IMG/VR virus record: IMGVR_UViG_3300012942_000063
Location: 1-47,977 of that record
Reading direction: 5' to 3' (one strand)
From: a virus
Taxonomy: Duplodnaviria > Caudoviricetes
DNA: 47,977 bases
Position numbers and translations under genes: made by a program
Notes under the pieces: model-generated
The model's input: the letters and a program-made list of their open reading frames with translations, nothing else
The model's database searches: none
Told to the model about the DNA's origin: nothing
Shown here: piece by piece, positions 4,539-44,380 of the stretch
Layout: each line of letters opens with the position of its first letter
How positions within the stretch are numbered: the first letter of the stretch is position 1

Positions 4539-4739
4539 GTGACCGAAGAAGAGGACGACCATATTCAGCTTATGCTGAACGGGTACACTGAATACGCCAA
4601 CGAGGCCGATCTCACTGATTGGGAGCGCTCGTTTATGGCCGATCAGGTCAAGCGGTATGAAACCTACGGGTCGCGCACCCGGTTCTCGGACAAGCAAATC
4701 GAGATCATCGAGCGCGTTTACGGGAAGCTTCCGATATGA
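4539..4739 (+). CDS. Hypothetical protein
   Basis: Fills gap; ATGA-coupled to polymerase. Confidence 0.65.
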   Translation: MTEEEDDHIQLMLNGYTEYANEADLTDWERSFMADQVKRYETYGSRTRFSDKQIEIIERVYGKLPI

Positions 4740-6670
4740 GAGAAACGCTGGTCAACACCCGCGACGCCGCCGAGCGCGTCCTCCGCATCTTCCGCGACAC
4801 TGCGCATTGCACGGTGGACACCGAAACCAGCGGCCTGTCGTGGCAGCGCAACCACATCGTGGGTTGGGTCCTGACCTTTCTCGACGAAGGCAGCTATTAC
4901 GTGCCGGTCCGCCACGCCGGGGGCGGCAACCTGCCCGGGTGCAATGTTCCGCTCACCGAAGATGGGTGGCGCGGCGATCTACACTGGTTCGAGATCGAAC
5001 TAGCCAAGGCAGCCGCCGAGCGCCCGCGCCGCATCGTCGGTCACAATCTTTTGTTCGATCTTCGCTTCGCCAAGAAACACGGGGTCGTGTTCTACGGCGA
5101 CAAGGAAGACACGATGGTCAACGCACCGTTGATCGACGAAAACCGGTTCAGCTACTCGCTCGAGAGCGTGGCCAAGAGCGAGGAGGTGCAGGCCAAGAAA
5201 GGCGGCGATCTCTACCAGTACATGGCTTCGATTTTTGGCGGCGAGCCCGATCGAAAACAGATGTCCAACTACTGGCGCACCGACGCCTCGGTCCCGATCG
5301 TGTGGGGTTACGCGGCGGGCGACGGCGTGACGACCGAGGAGGTGTGGCGCGTCCAACAACCGCAGATCACCCGGGAAGATGATATGGGGAGATCGCTCGC
5401 CAAGGTCCACAACGTCGAGTGCCGCCTGATCAACACGCTGTTTCGGATGACCAGTGGCGGGGTAGTGATCGACGAGGACCGCCTGCACCGAGCAGACCGC
5501 CTGTTTGAGAAACGCGCCGCCGCCGCCGGGGCGGGCTTCCCCAAGGACTTCAACAGCAAATCGCCCCGGGCGCTCAAGGAATACTTCGAGGGGCTCGGCC
5601 TGATCAACGATAGCTGGCCCCGCAACGACCCCACCGCCGCCGAGATCAAGAAGGCCAAGGCGGAGGGCCGGATGCCAATCGGCGCGCTTAAATTCGACGA
5701 GGCAACGCTCAAGCAATACGAGGCCGGCCGAGCGGTAATCGACTTCCGTCAAGTCACCAATGCCCGCTCACTGTACACGCAGCCGATGCTACACCGCCAC
5801 TTGTTCAACAGCCACGTCCATTGTGACTTCGCCCAAATGGCGAGCGACGACTACGGCACCGTGTCGGGCCGGCTGTCCTGCTATGATCCGAACTTGCAGG
5901 CAGTGAGCAAGCGCAACAAGAAGATCGGGGCGATCTACCGCGCCTGCTTTCTTCCCGATCCGGGCTGCACGTGGGAGGACCGCGATTACAAGCAGCAGGA
6001 GTACGTGGTCTTCACTGATTACACCGGGGACCCGAACCTGATGGCGGGATACGCCGCCAATCCCCCGGTGGACATCCACTCCACCGTGGCGGAGATGCTT
6101 AGCGTCGAGCGCGATCCGACCGCCAAGCGCATGAACCTCGGGATGCTCTACGGCATGGGGGTGGTCAAGCTGGCCGTATCGCTCGGCGTGTCGGTCGAGC
6201 AAGCGCGGCGGTGGATGACGCTCTACCACCAGAAGTTTCCCTACGCCAAGCGCTTCCTCAAGGGCGCGGAGGCCAAGGCCCGGGCGCGCGGTTTCGTCTT
6301 CACCTATTTGGGCCGGCGTCGCCGCTTCCCCGACGTGCGCTTCGCCCACAAGGCAGGCAACGCGGTGATCCAAGGATCGAGCGCGGACATTACCAAGCTT
6401 AAGATGTGCGAGATCGACGAATATTTCGCTAGCGAGGGTGATCATTGCCGCCTGATGCTGCAAATCCATGACTCGCTGTCGTGGAGTGCACCGCGAGACG
6501 AGAAGGGCCGCAGGATGACCGCCGAAGCCGATCGTATCATGACTGACTTTTATTCGGACAACGCGGTGATCAAGCTCCGCGCTAAGCTCGGCATCGACGC
6601 TGCCAGCGGTGACAACTGGGCAGAGGCGACGTGGGGCCGCGAACTGGTGGAACAGCAGTGGGCGGCATGA
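4736..6670 (+). CDS. dpoZ: Family A DNA polymerase with 3'-5' exonuclease (candidate DpoZ)
   Basis: ExoI DTETSGL, ExoII GHNLLFD, ExoIII YAAGD; GTVSGRLS, motif A DYKQQE, motif B AKRMNLGMLYG, motif C IHDS. Family A is secure; the DpoZ label is inferred from purZ/datZ linkage. Confidence 0.85.
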   Translation: MRETLVNTRDAAERVLRIFRDTAHCTVDTETSGLSWQRNHIVGWVLTFLDEGSYYVPVRHAGGGNLPGCNVPLTEDGWRGDLHWFEIELAKAAAERPRRIVGHNLLFDLRFAKKHGVVFYGDKEDTMVNAPLIDENRFSYSLESVAKSEEVQAKKGGDLYQYMASIFGGEPDRKQMSNYWRTDASVPIVWGYAAGDGVTTEEVWRVQQPQITREDDMGRSLAKVHNVECRLINTLFRMTSGGVVIDEDRLHRADRLFEKRAAAAGAGFPKDFNSKSPRALKEYFEGLGLINDSWPRNDPTAAEIKKAKAEGRMPIGALKFDEATLKQYEAGRAVIDFRQVTNARSLYTQPMLHRHLFNSHVHCDFAQMASDDYGTVSGRLSCYDPNLQAVSKRNKKIGAIYRACFLPDPGCTWEDRDYKQQEYVVFTDYTGDPNLMAGYAANPPVDIHSTVAEMLSVERDPTAKRMNLGMLYGMGVVKLAVSLGVSVEQARRWMTLYHQKFPYAKRFLKGAEAKARARGFVFTYLGRRRRFPDVRFAHKAGNAVIQGSSADITKLKMCEIDEYFASEGDHCRLMLQIHDSLSWSAPRDEKGRRMTAEADRIMTDFYSDNAVIKLRAKLGIDAASGDNWAEATWGRELVEQQWAA

Positions 6671-7930: not shown

Positions 7931-8525
7931 CATCACCGACACGCTGGCGCAGCGTGGTGCCGCCTATGGCGACTTTCGCGAGCAGGGCCGCATCACGCAG
8001 AACCTCAAGCGGGCGATGCAGGATAGCCCCAACTGGGCGCGACTCCCCTCCTACATGAAGGAGGGACTGGACATGATCCAGCACAAGATTTCCCGCATGC
8101 TCAACGGCGATGCGCTGTATGACGACAACATGCACGACATCATCGGTTACACGAAGCTGATGCAGGACCGCGCCGCTCAAGACCGGGAAATGGGAGTCGT
8201 ATTCGAGACAGGGGGCGACAAGCTCTACCCGGCGTACGAACACGAGCGAAAGCGCAAGCCGCTGGACGCCACGTTAGAACGGCTGATGAACGCCCCCGGG
8301 ACGCCCGGCGAGACTGATTGGCGCAAGCACATCGGCGCGGTGGCTCATGCCTACCTCAAGCCGGGCCACACATTCAGCGGGGACCCCGATCAAATCGAAC
8401 CAGCAGCGATCAAACTCGGTGTTGAGATGGGCAACGTGATCCTCAAGAACCGCCTGTATCACCACACCGAACTCGATCGCGGGTACACGTATCTCGGCGC
8501 GTTCACACTCACGGAGGACAACTGA
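7842..8525 (+). CDS. DUF6378-like all-alpha protein with C-terminal extension
   Basis: TLAQRGAAYGDF...LDMIQHKISRMLNGD..YDDNMHDIIGY pattern; RBS GGAG before ATG 7842; TGATG-coupled to purZ. Confidence 0.7.
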   Translation: MSNDTGSRAAGGGARTTGAPTPSTASGRDDITDTLAQRGAAYGDFREQGRITQNLKRAMQDSPNWARLPSYMKEGLDMIQHKISRMLNGDALYDDNMHDIIGYTKLMQDRAAQDREMGVVFETGGDKLYPAYEHERKRKPLDATLERLMNAPGTPGETDWRKHIGAVAHAYLKPGHTFSGDPDQIEPAAIKLGVEMGNVILKNRLYHHTELDRGYTYLGAFTLTEDN

Positions 8526-9604
8526 TGACCAGCCCTGACATTTCCTCGTTTGTGAAGGCAGGCCGCGCCTCCGTGATCTTCGACGGCCAGTTTGGGTCCA
8601 CCGGCAAGGGGCTGGCCGGGGCGTGGGTCGGCGAGCACAACCAGATCGACTGGGCAACGACGAATGCCAGCGCCAACGCGGGGCACACCTCGATCATCGA
8701 CGGCAAGCCGGTGGTGCTGTTCCACATCCCCTCGACGTTTCTGACGGCGCGCCAGAACGGGCAGTGCCGCATCTACATCAACGCTGGGGCGATAGTCGAT
8801 CTCGACGTGCTGTGCCGCGAGATCGAGGAGCAGGGCATCCGGCACCACGAGATTTTCGTCAACCCCAACGCCGCCGTGATCCTCCCGGAAGATCAGGAGG
8901 CCGAGCGCGACCGCACCTCGTCGCAGACCAAGATCGCTTCGACGCAGAAAGGCGTCGGGGCATCTCTCGCGCGGAAAGTCCGCCGCGACGGCCCAAATTT
9001 GGGCCAGTTCATCGAACGGAGCTACCGTAAGGTGCCGTTTCAGTTGACCACCGTGTCCCTGAACCGCGAGATGCAGGAGAACGGGGCGTCGGTGGTAGTA
9101 GAGGTGCCGCAGGGGTTCAGCCTGTCGCTGAACTCGAGCGGGTTCTACCCCTACACCACCAGCCGCGACTGCACCCTGCAGCAGGGCATGTCGGACGCTG
9201 GCATTGCGCCTAGGTTGTTCCATAAATCGATGGCGGTGCTGCGCACCTACCCGATCCGGGTCGGCAATATAACCGACGGCGAGCGCCAGATCGGGTTCTC
9301 GGGGCACGTTTACCCGGATCAGCACGAGACGTCGTGGCAAGCGATCGGCCAGCCCGAGGAGCGCACCACCGTCACTAAGCGGGTGCGCCGGGTGTTCACC
9401 TTCTCGGCCAAGCAATACGAACACATGCTCCGTCACAGCATGCCCGATTTCGCGCTGCTGAACTTCGCCAACTACTGCAACCGTCGCCGGGTCGAGGCAA
9501 TCGCCGACACGATGCAGGACATCGAGCGGAGGCTTGGAATTGCGGTGTTAAAGTACTACGGCTATTCGGCGGCATCGGAGGGCATAAGTGAATACATCAG
9601 ATAA
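8525..9604 (+). CDS. purZ: N6-succino-2-amino-2'-deoxyadenylate synthase PurZ
   Basis: PurA fold with the PurZ-diagnostic GQFGSTGKG (Ser replacing PurA Asp), NAGHT, QGFSL..FYPYTTSR, RTYPIRV, ERTTVTKRVRR and C-terminal NFANY. Confidence 0.95.
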   Translation: MTSPDISSFVKAGRASVIFDGQFGSTGKGLAGAWVGEHNQIDWATTNASANAGHTSIIDGKPVVLFHIPSTFLTARQNGQCRIYINAGAIVDLDVLCREIEEQGIRHHEIFVNPNAAVILPEDQEAERDRTSSQTKIASTQKGVGASLARKVRRDGPNLGQFIERSYRKVPFQLTTVSLNREMQENGASVVVEVPQGFSLSLNSSGFYPYTTSRDCTLQQGMSDAGIAPRLFHKSMAVLRTYPIRVGNITDGERQIGFSGHVYPDQHETSWQAIGQPEERTTVTKRVRRVFTFSAKQYEHMLRHSMPDFALLNFANYCNRRRVEAIADTMQDIERRLGIAVLKYYGYSAASEGISEYIR

Positions 9605-9637
9605 CTTCGTGTGCCGTGCCGTAGTGGAGCGCCACGC

Positions 9638-10429
9638 ATGAACATCGTTATCCCTCCGGCCATCGTCGGCATGACCCCGGAACTCACCGAGTTCTTCGAG
9701 GGCATGGTCCATAAGCTGAACGTGAACAGCCACAAGGACGCGATCCGGTCCGATGACATCGACGGCTTGCTTGCCAAGATGCAGGCGGAGATACAGGAGT
9801 TCCGGGACCAGCGGATCGCCGATGCCAGTGATGCCAACATGCTGTCGGAACTCCACGACATCGGGAACTTTGCCTTCCTGCTCTACGCCTATCTCCGGTC
9901 GCGCGGCCTCAAGACGATGCGGGAGCGCTTCCTCGACGAGTATTTCGACGTGAGCACCGTCGAGGGCCGGGTGTACTGTCGCAAGACGCGACCCGGCTCG
10001 CCCCTACAGCCGGGCGAGGAGGTATACGGGAGCGCGCGCGATGGCGTCCGCTACATAAGGTCGCAGAGCGTCGCCGCCGGGGTCTCCGTGTCGGTCTCGA
10101 TCCGCGATCTGGTGTGGTGGAAGCACCACGGCCGGTGGCCCGAGCGCCCGTTGCGGTACAAGCGCCAGCAGGGGCCGTCGCTCACCACGACGAAGGACTG
10201 CATCGACAATCTCGAGCTTGTCCCCGAGGAGCCGGGCGGCAAGCTGCCATTCGTGTTCTGCTATCAGCCAAAGGGTCGCGAGAACGCCAAGAATTACGGA
10301 CGGTTCGGGTATCAGCGCCGCCACGCCTTCAAGCTCGTCCGCGTCGGCTACTGGGACAGCGCGGAGGAGGCCGCGCGCGAGGGCGTCAAGGCGTGGAAAG
10401 CCAAGGTAAGGGAGACGGGCAATGTCTAA
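9638..10429 (+). CDS. mazZ: MazG-like (d)GTP diphosphohydrolase (MazZ-type) fused to degenerate HNH-AP2 domain
   Basis: N-terminal ExxE...ExxD (EIQE...ELHD) in about 90 helical residues; located between purZ and datZ; C-terminal half follows the HNH-AP2 pattern. Confidence 0.7.
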   Translation: MNIVIPPAIVGMTPELTEFFEGMVHKLNVNSHKDAIRSDDIDGLLAKMQAEIQEFRDQRIADASDANMLSELHDIGNFAFLLYAYLRSRGLKTMRERFLDEYFDVSTVEGRVYCRKTRPGSPLQPGEEVYGSARDGVRYIRSQSVAAGVSVSVSIRDLVWWKHHGRWPERPLRYKRQQGPSLTTTKDCIDNLELVPEEPGGKLPFVFCYQPKGRENAKNYGRFGYQRRHAFKLVRVGYWDSAEEAAREGVKAWKAKVRETGNV

Positions 10430-10589
10430 CCTATTCGGCCCCGGGTTGCGCGCGTCGCGGATGACCGTCAACGTAGCACACGTCGTGCTGCAGATGTCCA
10501 CCAAGCCAATAATTTTCGGATGTGCCGAAGTGGTCGCCAAGTCGCCGTCAAGTCGTTCAACGACAACGGCGTTCCGCAATACGCGCTGA
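10422..10589 (+). CDS. Possible 55-aa ORF
   Basis: GGAG RBS before ATG 10422; fills the gap between mazZ and datZ; no motif. Confidence 0.3.
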   Translation: MSNLFGPGLRASRMTVNVAHVVLQMSTKPIIFGCAEVVAKSPSSRSTTTAFRNTR

Positions 10590-10626
10590 CCGAATACGGG
10601 CAGCAGGTCAAGACGAAACTGGAGAG

Positions 10627-11337
10627 ATGGCTGTGCTTGAGCGCGAATTAGTTGACGCCCTGTTCGTCAAGCGGTGGTCGATCGTCCGCACCCTGATGCC
10701 GCAGAGCGTCGCGGAGCATAGTTTTTTAGTCGCCCACTACGCGAACGACATCTGCACCTATTTGGGCGTGGACAAGGACTTGCACCTTGCGGTTCTACAA
10801 TACGCGCTATGGCACGACATGGACGAGCAATTCACCGGAGACTTGCCCGGCCCAAATAAGCGTGGGTTGCTCGAGGCGATCGGTCCCGATGCCAAGAGCA
10901 AATGGGACGCCCGGTTGAAGACGTGGACCGACCGCGTGTTTGACAACGCGCTGGAGCGGTCCGGCGGCAAGCTCGGGCCGAAGGACGCCGTAACCCTGCT
11001 GCTGGTCGTTAAGACGGCCGACTGGCTCGAGGCGGCTGTTCGCATGGCCACCGAGGACCAGATGGGCAACCGGTGTGCGACCCGGCACATCGTGCCAAAC
11101 CGGGACGGCGCGCGCGACTGCGCCGCCAAGCTCTGCCACCATCTGTTCGAAGTCCCGATCTACGTGGACGAGATACCACACAACCCGGGGCTCGGCCAGC
11201 AGACTTTCAACGAACTCGATGAAATGATCATCCGCTGCGTAAACGACGCGCAGCACGGCCAGTCGCGCGGCCCGTGGATCACCGGGGAAGACGACGATCG
11301 CGTGTTCGACCCGGCATTGGGAGACCGGGAGGCGTGA
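10627..11337 (+). CDS. datZ: HD-domain dATP triphosphohydrolase DatZ
   Basis: VKRWSIVRT..QSVAEHSF, ALWHDMDEQFTGDLPGP, VVKTADWLEA HD-hydrolase motifs; RBS GGAGAG; linked to purZ. Confidence 0.9.
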   Translation: MAVLERELVDALFVKRWSIVRTLMPQSVAEHSFLVAHYANDICTYLGVDKDLHLAVLQYALWHDMDEQFTGDLPGPNKRGLLEAIGPDAKSKWDARLKTWTDRVFDNALERSGGKLGPKDAVTLLLVVKTADWLEAAVRMATEDQMGNRCATRHIVPNRDGARDCAAKLCHHLFEVPIYVDEIPHNPGLGQQTFNELDEMIIRCVNDAQHGQSRGPWITGEDDDRVFDPALGDREA

Positions 11338-11831
11338 AGTGTGGCGCTCTGTTTTCCCCGGTGTGCATCGGGCGAGACGGGGAATGGCCTCCGGAGGCAA
11401 TGTGCACAAACCGCCCAACGCTGTGTCGAAAGTGCAATTCGGCCAAGGTAAAGCAGTACTACCGGGACAACCCGGAGAAGCGCTCGGCAGTTCGTCGCCG
11501 TTGCAATAAACGGTCTTACTGGAATAACGTGGAGAAACGGAGAGCGGCAAAGCGGGAATACGCAAAGCGCAACAAGCAAGCCGTTAACCGACGTGCCAAC
11601 AACCGAAAGACTAAGCTAAAGACGATTTGCCAGATCACGGACGCGGAGTGGCGAGAGGTCCTTGACACCTACGGCCACCGTTGCTTAGCTTGCGGGTCTA
11701 CCGAGGACGTAACCCGCGACCACGTAGTGCCGATTTCAAAAGGCGGCGAAGACACCGCTGCCAACTCGCAGCCGTTGTGTCGTTCGTGCAACGCTTCTAA
11801 GGGAGCAAAGACCATTGACTACCGTACCTAA
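11334..11831 (+). CDS. HNH endonuclease
   Basis: CLACG...TRDHVVPISKGG....NSQPLCRSCNASKG; GTGA overlap with datZ stop. Confidence 0.9.
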   Translation: MKCGALFSPVCIGRDGEWPPEAMCTNRPTLCRKCNSAKVKQYYRDNPEKRSAVRRRCNKRSYWNNVEKRRAAKREYAKRNKQAVNRRANNRKTKLKTICQITDAEWREVLDTYGHRCLACGSTEDVTRDHVVPISKGGEDTAANSQPLCRSCNASKGAKTIDYRT

Positions 11832-15390: not shown

Positions 15391-15421
15391 GTGATACCTC
15401 CCCGCCACGGGGAGGTATCAC
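15391..15421. terminator. Perfect 14-bp inverted repeat between convergent transcription units
   Basis: GTGATACCTCCCCG-cca-CGGGGAGGTATCAC; no U-tract, so it may instead be a protein-binding palindrome. Confidence 0.5.
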
Positions 15422-15469
15422 GGAGCGGCAGGAGGCGGCATCTCGGTACTCTAGGGCCTCCGCGCCCCG

Positions 15470-20809: not shown

Positions 20810-21282
20810 TCGTACCCCCCGAACGTGTAAACTCGCATTGGCCGCTCGGCCATCGGCGTCCCGAGAAGTGATACCTCTTCGACGATACCAGAAGGAAGAT
20901 AGGCATGGACGAACCTAGGCCAATCAGTTACGATACCGCCATGCGAGTAGCAGCGCCCGACGCGCCAGACGAGCACGTCCCCGGGGGCGATGGCGTACAG
21001 AGGGTCCTCGCGTACCCGGTCGGCCAGCGAGCGCTCCCCGTACACCTCGTCGGCCCGGGAGAGGTACGCCTCCACGAAGCCTAGGTATCGCTCCTCCGAG
21101 CGATGCAGGTGCCAGTCGCAGGTGTAGTACCCGGCATCGACGTGCGGAATGGCCCCTGCCTCCTCGAATGCCGCCAGAATAAGCTGTCCACAATCCACCC
21201 CGGCACCCTTCACCCGGGCGGCGTGGTGATACGGGGTGGATACCCAACCCCGCACGGCCGAGACTACGGTAGCGCGGTCCAT
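20806..21282 (-). CDS. NlpC/P60 tail-associated peptidase
   Basis: WVSTPYHH..GVDCGQL, GDVLVW..YSHGGI. Confidence 0.88.
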   Translation of the reverse strand: MDRATVVSAVRGWVSTPYHHAARVKGAGVDCGQLILAAFEEAGAIPHVDAGYYTCDWHLHRSEERYLGFVEAYLSRADEVYGERSLADRVREDPLYAIAPGDVLVWRVGRCYSHGGIVTDWPRFVHAYLPSGIVEEVSLLGTPMAERPMRVYTFGGYE

Positions 21283-30600: not shown

Positions 30601-31164
30601 TTACTCCGACTTGCTCTTCTCGGCGAGCAAGTCCTTGGCGGCGGTGAGCGCCGCCTCGGTGGACACGTTGGCGGCGATCGAACCGCCGTTCTCGTTGATC
30701 CACGCCACCAGCTGATCACGGTTCATCGCCCCGAGATCGGCCTCCGTGATGGGGGTGGCACCTCCCGCGCTCGACGAGGTATCACGCGACGCAGCGTCGG
30801 CGGTGTCGGTCCCCGTGGTGCCCGGGCCGGCGGTGGCCGCTCGGAGGGCGTCCTGCGCCGCCGTCAACTCGGACGACAGACGGGCATTATCGGCCTCGAG
30901 GAAACTGGCCCTTGAGGCCAACGCGGCGTTTTCGGAGACGAGATCGTTGAAACGGTCCTGCATGTCGGGATCGGACGCCATTTCCGTGACGCCTACCACC
31001 GCACTGGCCCCCGGCGCGTAGGGATCGAATGGGCGCAGGCCCAAACGATGGAGCTTGGGCACGTGGAGCGCATCGTTCACTTCGACGTGACCGTCCTCAT
31101 CCGGCCGGTATTCGACGCCGCCGATCACGGCGTGTGAGAAATGTTGGGGGGCTGTCATCCTCAT
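30601..31164 (-). CDS. Hypothetical head-associated protein
   Basis: Directly after capsid gene; coiled coil and short C-terminal helical motif. Confidence 0.7.
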   Translation of the reverse strand: MRMTAPQHFSHAVIGGVEYRPDEDGHVEVNDALHVPKLHRLGLRPFDPYAPGASAVVGVTEMASDPDMQDRFNDLVSENAALASRASFLEADNARLSSELTAAQDALRAATAGPGTTGTDTADAASRDTSSSAGGATPITEADLGAMNRDQLVAWINENGGSIAANVSTEAALTAAKDLLAEKSKSE

Positions 31165-42855: not shown

Positions 42856-43020
42856 CGGTCCAGTGTCCGGTATTTGGGTCTCCGTGGCGTCTCGCCGCGC
42901 CTCGATATGTCTCGGCTATGTACTGGACCAATTCCCCCAGTACATACGACCCTTTAGGTGATACCATCCGACTTCTCCAGTGGGACTAGACGCCACCGCC
43001 GCTCCGTGCTACAGTAGCGC

Positions 43021-43943: not shown

Positions 43944-44380
43944 TCGCCTACCAAGCCCCCGCCATCGTGCCCCGCACGATGGCCGGCCACCGCCTAGTCA
44001 GCGCTGGCCTCGCCGAGATCGTCGAGGAACGCGGTTACTGGGTCATCGGGCGTCTGATCACCGATCCGCCCGTCCTGTTCGAGCTTTCCACCGAGAGTGT
44101 CCACCTCGTCGGCATCCAGTACCGCGTCTCCCCGGACGTGCCAGTCACTTATTTGGGCCTCTACCGAAACGGCAAGGTCATTGCCGAGTTTCAGCTTGGA
44201 ACGTGGCCAGTCAAGCCAGCTCCCGACGTCTTTAGCCTCCTCTCTCCCTTCCTCCACGCACTGCGCGGTGCTATCCCTGTCTCCGTGCCACAGCCCCCCG
44301 CCCCCTCGCTGCCACCTCCTGGCCACGGAGAGGTATCACGGAGCGCCACGACGCGCCGCCGGGGGCCCCAGTGCCGCTGA
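43940..44380 (+). CDS. Hypothetical protein
   Basis: TTGA overlap with previous stop. Confidence 0.55.
   Translation: MIAYQAPAIVPRTMAGHRLVSAGLAEIVEERGYWVIGRLITDPPVLFELSTESVHLVGIQYRVSPDVPVTYLGLYRNGKVIAEFQLGTWPVKPAPDVFSLLSPFLHALRGAIPVSVPQPPAPSLPPPGHGEVSRSATTRRRGPQCR

Follow-up and report, generated by a model that had tools for sequence, protein, structure and literature searches.

What is a homing-endonuclease module doing on an enzyme of the nucleotide pool? The question is raised by a single gene in a 47,977-nucleotide stretch of viral DNA (Duplodnaviria; Caudoviricetes), which was analysed over its whole length and is called the window below. The initial annotation had read this gene as a MazZ-like nucleotide hydrolase fused to an apparently inactive HNH-AP2 DNA-binding module. 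The window holds a tailed-phage gene set (primase, PolA, SNF2 helicase, terminase, portal, tail and lysis genes), and the gene in question runs on the + strand from an ATG at 9638 to a stop at 10429. The features needed for the argument are as follows.

4736..6670, + strand: family A DNA polymerase, same operon, not a typical DpoZ (by alignment)
8525..9604, + strand: purZ (phrog_1211, E 2e-62; aligned with known PurZ)
9638..10429, + strand: fusion gene, MazZ-2 plus predicted dead HNH lobe plus AP2 (263 aa; 85 near-full-length homologues)
9638..9913, + strand: MazZ-2 all-alpha NTP pyrophosphohydrolase domain, aa 1-92 (by family HMM and AF_0060 fold)
9914..10243, + strand: I-HmuI-like HNH lobe, aa 93-202 (by model, fold match and alignment)
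aa 169-202, within the HNH lobe: relic beta-beta-alpha site, R173/Y174 replacing D/H, no helix after strand 192-194
10244..10405, + strand: AP2 domain, aa 203-256, with near-invariant YQRRH, R235, W253 and K254
10422..10651, + strand: small gene overlapping the fusion stop codon, in two frames here and one frame in L012
about 10627..11337, + strand: datZ, HD-family dATP triphosphohydrolase (phrog_7076, E 8e-21; YfbR-like/HD_3), its start at 10627 inferred from L012

The neighbours place the gene in a Z cluster, a set of genes by which a phage puts 2-aminoadenine (Z) in the place of adenine. The upstream product can be aligned with the PurZ proteins of phiVC8, S-2L and PMBT28, has Ser at the position of PurA Asp13 and carries the C-terminal NFxNY found in phiVC8 and PMBT28 PurZ; an identity as PurZ0 was dismissed on this alignment and on the presence of datZ. 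DNA context is known for five of the 85 family members (the window, L001, L012, L013 and L026; L011, which is the window's own contig, and L027/L028, which repeat L001, are left out of the locus counts). In all five, the fusion gene occupies a fixed slot with purZ upstream, which is the outcome of the survey of purZ neighbourhoods that the initial annotation had proposed. Downstream, datZ is present in 4/4 loci reaching that far, the fusion gene overlaps the next start codon in the four loci extending to it, and small ORFs sit between purZ, fusion and datZ in some loci.

Several features of the operon were noted in passing. The small gene at 10422-10651 is about 13 codons shorter in the window than the single 85-aa frame at L012:2287-2544; a second assembly matches the window at this point, and a piece of the gene recurs in P0100. 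Between datZ and the helicase, the window carries a second HNH endonuclease, of the HNH_5 type and intact-looking (11274-11831), which was not found in L001, L012 or L026. The polymerase at 4736-6670 shares just 27-29% identity with PMBT28 DpoZ and with the polymerase of Bm1; with positions mapped via PMBT28 DpoZ, the L455-type Leu is present, but F459 is represented by Tyr and G548 by Asn. Judged by these residues, it may lack Z selectivity, or it may represent a further DpoZ type.

Is the fusion real? A single-sequence search returned 76 proteins, 74 of them near full length, and a profile search 89, namely 85 near-full-length and four partial proteins; all family counts below are based on the 85. 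The homologues show 41-68% identity. Because 85 homologue clusters keep both halves in a single frame, and because another assembly, which may derive from the same sample, is free of indels across 9400-11000, the fusion is not an artefact; the case of two genes joined by a sequencing or assembly error, named in the initial annotation as what would refute its reading, is excluded. In searches further afield, none of 50,697 records of isolated phages matched the query (a family member that keeps the His gave just weak HNH matches there), and GTDB genomes contained no family member. Among 881 candidates, no longer fusion of 462-2000 aa was found, which is weak evidence. Apparent exceptions were also set aside: P0075 (170 aa), P0102 and P0105, candidates for close stand-alone dead modules, look like fragments on contigs of 0.7-1.3 kb, and P0099/P0100 appear to be one frameshift-ridden copy of the same cluster.

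The next question is which enzyme forms the front half. A profile of aa 1-92 matches phiVC8 p26, ZP6 gp22 and OH gp33 (E 6e-8, 8e-9 and 1e-13; Z=1000), and the family HMM recovers 3/3 MazZ-2 references and 0/3 MazZ-1-type proteins (S-2L, PMBT28, Bm1). Because the phiVC8 type is matched and the MazZ-1 type missed, the front half is assigned to MazZ-2 as defined in PMC8342488; the same misses rule out a MazZ-1/DUF550 identity. The MazZ-type hydrolase proposed at the outset is therefore confirmed and, more specifically, placed in MazZ-2. Its MazG motif ExxE..ExxD is present as E51xxE54 and E71xxD74; these four acidic ligands are invariant in 85/85 members, align with those of phiVC8, ZP6 and OH, and correspond to S-2L E35, E38, E50 and D53. 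The other key residues are H32 and the conserved K26 (84/85), N30 (85/85) and K33 (83/85). Pfam MazG is matched by 4/74 members, none with an E value below 0.026. Among proteins of solved structure, AF_0060 comes closest, both by sequence profile (E 9e-4) and, among many helical ties, by fold (Z 8.9, rmsd 3.0, 82 aligned residues). K26/N30/K33 (window 9713-9736, K-x3-N-x2-K) precede the acidic helices, whereas S-2L K76/N80/R83 follow theirs with the same spacing; this order suggests a circular permutation relating MazZ-1 to MazZ-2.

S-2L MazZ is a tetramer that converts dGTP to dGMP. By analogy with that enzyme, from which the activity is inferred, the front half of the fusion likely splits dGTP to dGMP for PurZ; the accessible Z-cluster literature contains no direct assay of any MazZ-2.

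The same slot can also be filled by the enzyme without the module. Close stand-alone MazZ-2 genes of 86-121 aa occupy it in 15 other loci (9/10 from one search and 6/9 from another; L018 repeats L009), with purZ immediately upstream in 14 of the 15. L003 has two such genes in tandem, and in both L003 and L007 a ribonucleotide-reductase-like gene, recognised by motif, follows mazZ-2 (the features concerned lie at L003:7953-8704 and 8769-10439 and at L007:8216-9880); datZ was not detected in the fetched DNA of these two loci. At L002, L004, L005, L006, L008, L009, L014 and L016, the order is purZ, mazZ-2, then helicase, with no datZ match in the fetched stretch; there, datZ may be encoded at another place, may have diverged too far, or may be missing.

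What, then, is the C-terminal module? The query on its own gave no significant Pfam match, no PDB sequence match and one weak HNH match in PHROG (E 8e-4), and a PDB sequence search with a five-sequence C-terminal profile gave no match. Its origin becomes visible by alignment and structure. All five annotated phage HNH-AP2 endonucleases tested, which were chosen as tblastn matches of a family member, match the family profile (E 2e-8 to 2e-6; Z=1000), and the C-terminal 170 aa are collinear with them from end to end. An AlphaFold2 model of the fusion protein has a mean pLDDT of 91.9, and Foldseek of the full model places I-HmuI, AF_0060 and a TEM1 AP2 domain at PDB ranks 1-3, all above E 0.1 and none reaching E 0.001. 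In BFVD, 63 matches fall at E<=0.001, and of those in the top 50 that carry a name, nearly all are HNH or homing endonucleases. A model of the C-terminal part, built from five sequences, matches I-HmuI with Z 7.9 (rmsd 2.9, 85 aligned residues; next row Z 3.4); because the AP2 confidence of this model is low (pLDDT 38-61), its lobe match alone was used. The HNH-AP2 layout and origin described in the initial annotation are thus upheld by the collinear alignment and the I-HmuI-like fold, and the modelling that it had suggested returned both the HNH and the AP2 match among the top three.

The cutting site has been lost. At the metal-ligand position before the His, the query has R173, and among the 85 members Asp is found in none, Glu in four and His in one. 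The catalytic His position in the first beta strand is Y174 in the query, Tyr in 62/85 and His in 14/85; an acidic residue and His occur together (as Glu-His) in 1/85. After the hairpin, no position of the linker holds N or H in more than 10/85 members, and 72/85 linkers contain Pro. This Asn-helix linker is 10-12 aa long in 72/85 members versus 19-21 aa in the intact proteins P0101, P0103 and P0106, and the helix expected to bear the Asn is about 8-10 residues shorter in the alignment and absent from the AlphaFold2 model. By the active-site criteria set out in section 12 of PMC5714182, the nuclease site of the family is, as far as its residues tell, dead. Of the catalytic replacements claimed before, the loss of the DH pair stands, but the Asn-to-Asp change in DCIDNL is no mark of inactivity, because the intact P0101, P0103 and P0106-P0108 and two annotated phage HNH proteins also carry the Asp. 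What has truly been lost from the nuclease, judged from the alignment, is the DH pair together with the helix bearing the last Asn.

Two readings bear directly on this site. The protein could still be a nuclease with Tyr174 as general base, as in PacI, where Tyr can stand in for His (PMC5714182); Tyr at the His position in 62/85 members agrees with this. The same position also holds H, N, W, R or L, neither metal ligand is left and the length of the loop ranges from 6 to 23 aa, and we regard retained cutting as very improbable. The other reading builds on the sensing of Z versus A DNA suggested in the initial annotation: the module would tell the two kinds of DNA apart and steer the enzyme or switch it, in keeping with the finding that all five loci with DNA context are Z clusters beside purZ. 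The 2-amino group of Z faces the minor groove, and the minor-groove helix is the very element cut out, missing in the model and shortened in the alignment. In the HNH fold, it is this helix that contacts the minor groove (PMC5714182). Because the helix is lost, the Z mark lies in the minor groove and AP2 reads the major one, Z-versus-A sensing would be a surprising outcome, and hardly any weight is given to it.

How did a homing endonuclease come to be part of a MazZ-2 gene? When 1.84 billion representatives were searched with the five-sequence C-terminal profile, 48 matches were obtained, including candidate intermediates. P0101, the intact fused intermediate, is one protein on one 2.4-kb contig; in it, an entire MazZ-2 domain (E 3e-24) is joined to an HNH-AP2 that retains D, H and the Asn helix. 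P0103 has an intact HNH behind an N-terminus too short to be recognised as MazZ-2 any more, P0104 combines MazZ-2 and a dead HNH with a different AP2, and P0106-P0108, free-standing as judged from their called protein lengths, have intact HNH motifs and no MazZ-2. In a quick tree of HNH-AP2 modules calculated without the catalytic columns, P0101, P0103, P0104 and P0106-P0108 fall together with 12 dead members into a single branch (SH-aLRT 98), in which the dead family has short branches; the tree does not order the members inside it, and inactivation may have happened once or twice. In the tree of MazZ-2 domains, 10/11 stand-alone genes group together (98/96), although they are not rooted against the fusions and, with long branches, the bootstrap is not settled. 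From these proteins, the likely route would lead from a free intact HNH-AP2 gene through an intact fusion such as P0101 to the dead family, and the simplest path would be insertion after mazZ-2, in-frame fusion and later loss of the cutting site. The free, intact-fused and dead-fused series makes the domestication of a homing endonuclease testable with three small proteins.

Is the dead module still of use to the phage? Mean pairwise identity is 0.69 in AP2, 0.60 in MazZ-2, 0.55 in the HNH lobe and 0.29 in the relic site, and of 32 invariant columns 21 fall in the HNH-AP2 module and 11 in MazZ-2. In three segments compared across four loci, pS (0.53-0.94) exceeds pN (0.19-0.46) in 18/18 segment-pair comparisons; no pN/pS ratio is given because pS is near saturation. 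Together with the intermediates that keep the nuclease motif, this purifying selection supports the domestication proposed in the initial annotation. The module might nevertheless be a functionless relic that persists through its fusion to a needed enzyme and through translational coupling to the next gene. The degenerate former nuclease site (0.29 identity, loop of 6-23 aa) would be expected of a relic, and in 28/85 members the last two residues are NV or SV, as would fit an overlap with the start codon of the next gene downstream. Such a relic should not have an AP2 more conserved than the enzyme, with pN far under pS, nor contain 21 of the 32 invariant columns. We therefore consider a relic decidedly unlikely.

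The pattern of conservation further suggests what the module does. Within the dead family, Q226 (83/85), R228 (85/85) and R235 (79/85) of AP2 are fixed, whereas the same positions vary among the five closest intact relatives; R118, R141 and Q143 of the HNH lobe are also fixed across the family, and mean net charge is +3 in the lobe and +5 in AP2. AP2 domains read the major groove, and the positions of Q226, R228 and R235 would, by analogy with AP2/ERF structures, face DNA bases. Because the cutting residues are lost and the predicted DNA-reading surface is strongly conserved, re-use as a DNA-binding regulator is likely.

Invariance might equally be accounted for by a conserved partner protein. 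The AP2 surface would then bind a protein (PurZ, DatZ, the polymerase or a host factor) or RNA instead of DNA, which would agree with the overlap of the fusion gene with the next start codon in 4/4 loci reaching it and with target-site searches that found no DNA site. Against a role as scaffold, the fixed Arg, Gln, Tyr, Trp and Lys belong to the sheet of AP2 and to the I-HmuI-like lobe, presumably the DNA-reading parts of these folds, and stand-alone MazZ-2 fills the same operon slot without any module; we consider such a role quite unlikely.

We tentatively favour, at somewhat less than an even chance, an active MazZ-2 joined to a sequence-specific DNA-binding module, the former HNH-AP2, that acts as repressor or roadblock. 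In this proposal, the MazZ-2 half would hydrolyse dGTP, perhaps dATP too, as its slot, homology and intact acidic ligands suggest. A homing endonuclease would have become attached, in frame, to mazZ-2 at its 3' end and have been inactivated later, and its nuclease activity would now be gone with the metal Asp, mostly the His, and the Asn helix. The module would bind one fixed DNA sequence, in line with a fixed AP2 and fixed R118, R141 and Q143 against near-saturated synonymous sites. Two to four DNA-binding heads may be present per particle if the protein assembles like the MazG-fold dimer/tetramer of S-2L MazZ. In the final and least supported step, binding would silence or time transcription at a phage or host site. 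It speaks for the proposal that a stop codon could drop the module, as stand-alone MazZ-2 genes in the same slot show, yet 85 clusters keep it. In a variant that we consider doubtful, the protein would be a nucleotide-gated transcription factor derived from a selfish gene, the MazZ-2 oligomer sensing or consuming dGTP and the HNH-AP2 heads holding one conserved phage or host site; if true, this would tie the switch to Z-DNA synthesis to gene expression and give a Z pathway a dedicated regulator, of whose domestication the free, fused-intact and fused-dead stages can still be found in sequence collections.

The main rival is a tether: the module would anchor the enzyme to the DNA of the phage, either at numerous sites or at the origin, and bring the making of dGMP close to PurZ and the replication machinery. 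Both DNA-binding parts are retained and basic, as a tether would need, and because the window polymerase is without the F459 signature of the DpoZ clades, Z incorporation may lean on pool control. A dispersed 8-mer in the window, TTTGGGCC, could provide the many sites. Nucleotides diffuse fast inside a bacterial cell, though, and invariant sheet residues are needless for loose anchoring; the dispersed motifs differ between fusion genomes, AP2 does not, and such motifs also occur in genomes with stand-alone MazZ-2. We therefore consider a tether unlikely, and prefer binding to a specific site, with which the fixed sheet residues agree better than with a loose tether.

To which site the favoured regulator would bind was addressed by searches in six genomes, in which no target site of the module was found. 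Across purZ, the fusion gene and datZ, compared in three to four loci, there was no identical run of at least 11 bases and no significant synonymous constraint; five 13-mers are shared by three fusion genomes, which is not above the controls (8, 13 and 4), and blastn among the fusion genomes yielded no sequence linked to the fusion. No conserved site that could serve the autoregulation of the Z operon or the tethering suggested in the initial annotation emerged from these comparisons. Such conserved-block and k-mer searches would miss a site in the host, as well as a coding site recognised with tolerance for wobble.

Precedents for a regulator exist and are counted in favour of this reading. 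CapR of Vibrio PLE (PMC10448857) reuses the DNA-binding part of a homing endonuclease, there a zinc finger, as a repressor. The CasPRs of Bacillota phages (bioRxiv 10.64898/2026.02.23.707548) are repressors that need their AP2 and bind inside coding sequence, and Arg charge reversals in this AP2 abolish activity. Neither has a nuclease relic or an enzyme domain, and repression is shown there and predicted here. Smad MH1 is a dead His-Me finger retained for DNA binding (PMC5714182), and Smad4 MH1 is a weak fold match to our protein (Z 3.2); it differs in being eukaryotic, of I-PpoI type, and without AP2 or enzyme.

The components can likewise be set beside known families. MazZ-2 of the phiVC8-like type (PMC8342488) shares the purZ-datZ slot, the four acidic residues and profile homology to p26, gp22 and gp33; known MazZ-2 proteins are single domains of 85-97 aa, to which the fusion adds the C-terminal DNA-binding module. 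HNH_3-AP2 homing endonucleases (I-HmuI; His-Me finger group 2 in PMC5714182) share the collinear lobe, the beta-beta hairpin and AP2, whereas the fusion has lost the metal Asp, His and Asn helix, is joined to a metabolic enzyme and, compared with its intact HNH-AP2 relatives, has fixed AP2 residues where they vary. The MazZ fusions described in the sources available are N-terminal additions to MazZ-1 (for example DUF5664-DUF550) and DmtZ-DutZ, all with enzyme-type domains. The caution in the initial annotation that two-domain MazZ variants may already be reported is accordingly right for fusions with other enzymes, while an HNH-AP2 fusion was not found described in the sources seen. More specifically, the MazZ-2–HNH-AP2 fusion is undescribed in the full-text literature outside subscription journals, as far as that text was accessible, although the MazZ-2 sets deposited with PMC12884076 could hold members; the term HNH is absent from the accessible main text of PMC8342488, PMC12884076 and bioRxiv 10.1101/2025.10.22.683976, and the available text of PMC12944874 and PMC8599892 likewise contains no description of the fusion. 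Both the parts and the principle are known; what appears undescribed is the architecture, its position within the Z cluster and the series of intermediates.

A separate lead came from the ESM Atlas, in which an unnamed cluster of 86 members, 253 aa long, combines MazG (PF03819, 100%) with HNH_3 (97%) at a score of 0.81, to be taken as a lead only. It resembles our family in joining a MazG-fold domain to HNH_3; its members match Pfam MazG, unlike nearly all of ours, and, compared by annotation alone, it is probably a separate fusion. This suggests that HNH genes joined MazG-fold enzymes more than once. His-Me finger genes adjoining mazG genes are described as group 23 in PMC5714182.

In the accessible literature, Z clusters consist of pool enzymes, joined in certain phages by a selective polymerase; the DNA-binding module that MazZ-2 carries throughout 85 sequence clusters hints at a layer of control or localisation not described there. 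The family gives a first reason to assay MazZ-2, and also a lineage whose polymerase is without the shared DpoZ signature.

Finally, the repeat searches yielded observations on the phage genomes themselves. TTTGGGCC occurs in 17 copies versus 1.5 expected, from 6307 to 45976 of the window, and a perfect 16-bp palindrome lies within purZ at 8990-9005. The 8-mer is not common to the other fusion genomes; the related phages each carry a dispersed motif of their own (GCCCAGA in G001, CAGGGACAC in G002, CCGAAAGG in G003, TCCCTCA in G004 and GACGATGAC in G005). A further element, GAGGTATCAC, is present in five exact copies (0.09 expected; sites at 15391-15428, 20868-20877, 30776-30785, 44330-44339 and 42999-43008), three of which form the right arm of an imperfect hairpin; the search gave no tie to the fusion. 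G002 has a 27-nt look-alike of this element after its helicase (E 0.66), and the element is possibly an operator or an RNA hairpin; its copies at 15391-15428, 30776, 44330 and 42999-43008 are a weak candidate for the target of the module. The window also contains six sigma-70-like TTGACA promoters (13352, 13825, 41160, 41727, 42596 and 46033), three of which have a near-identical spacer, and ATTGACACA is enriched in G001 too.
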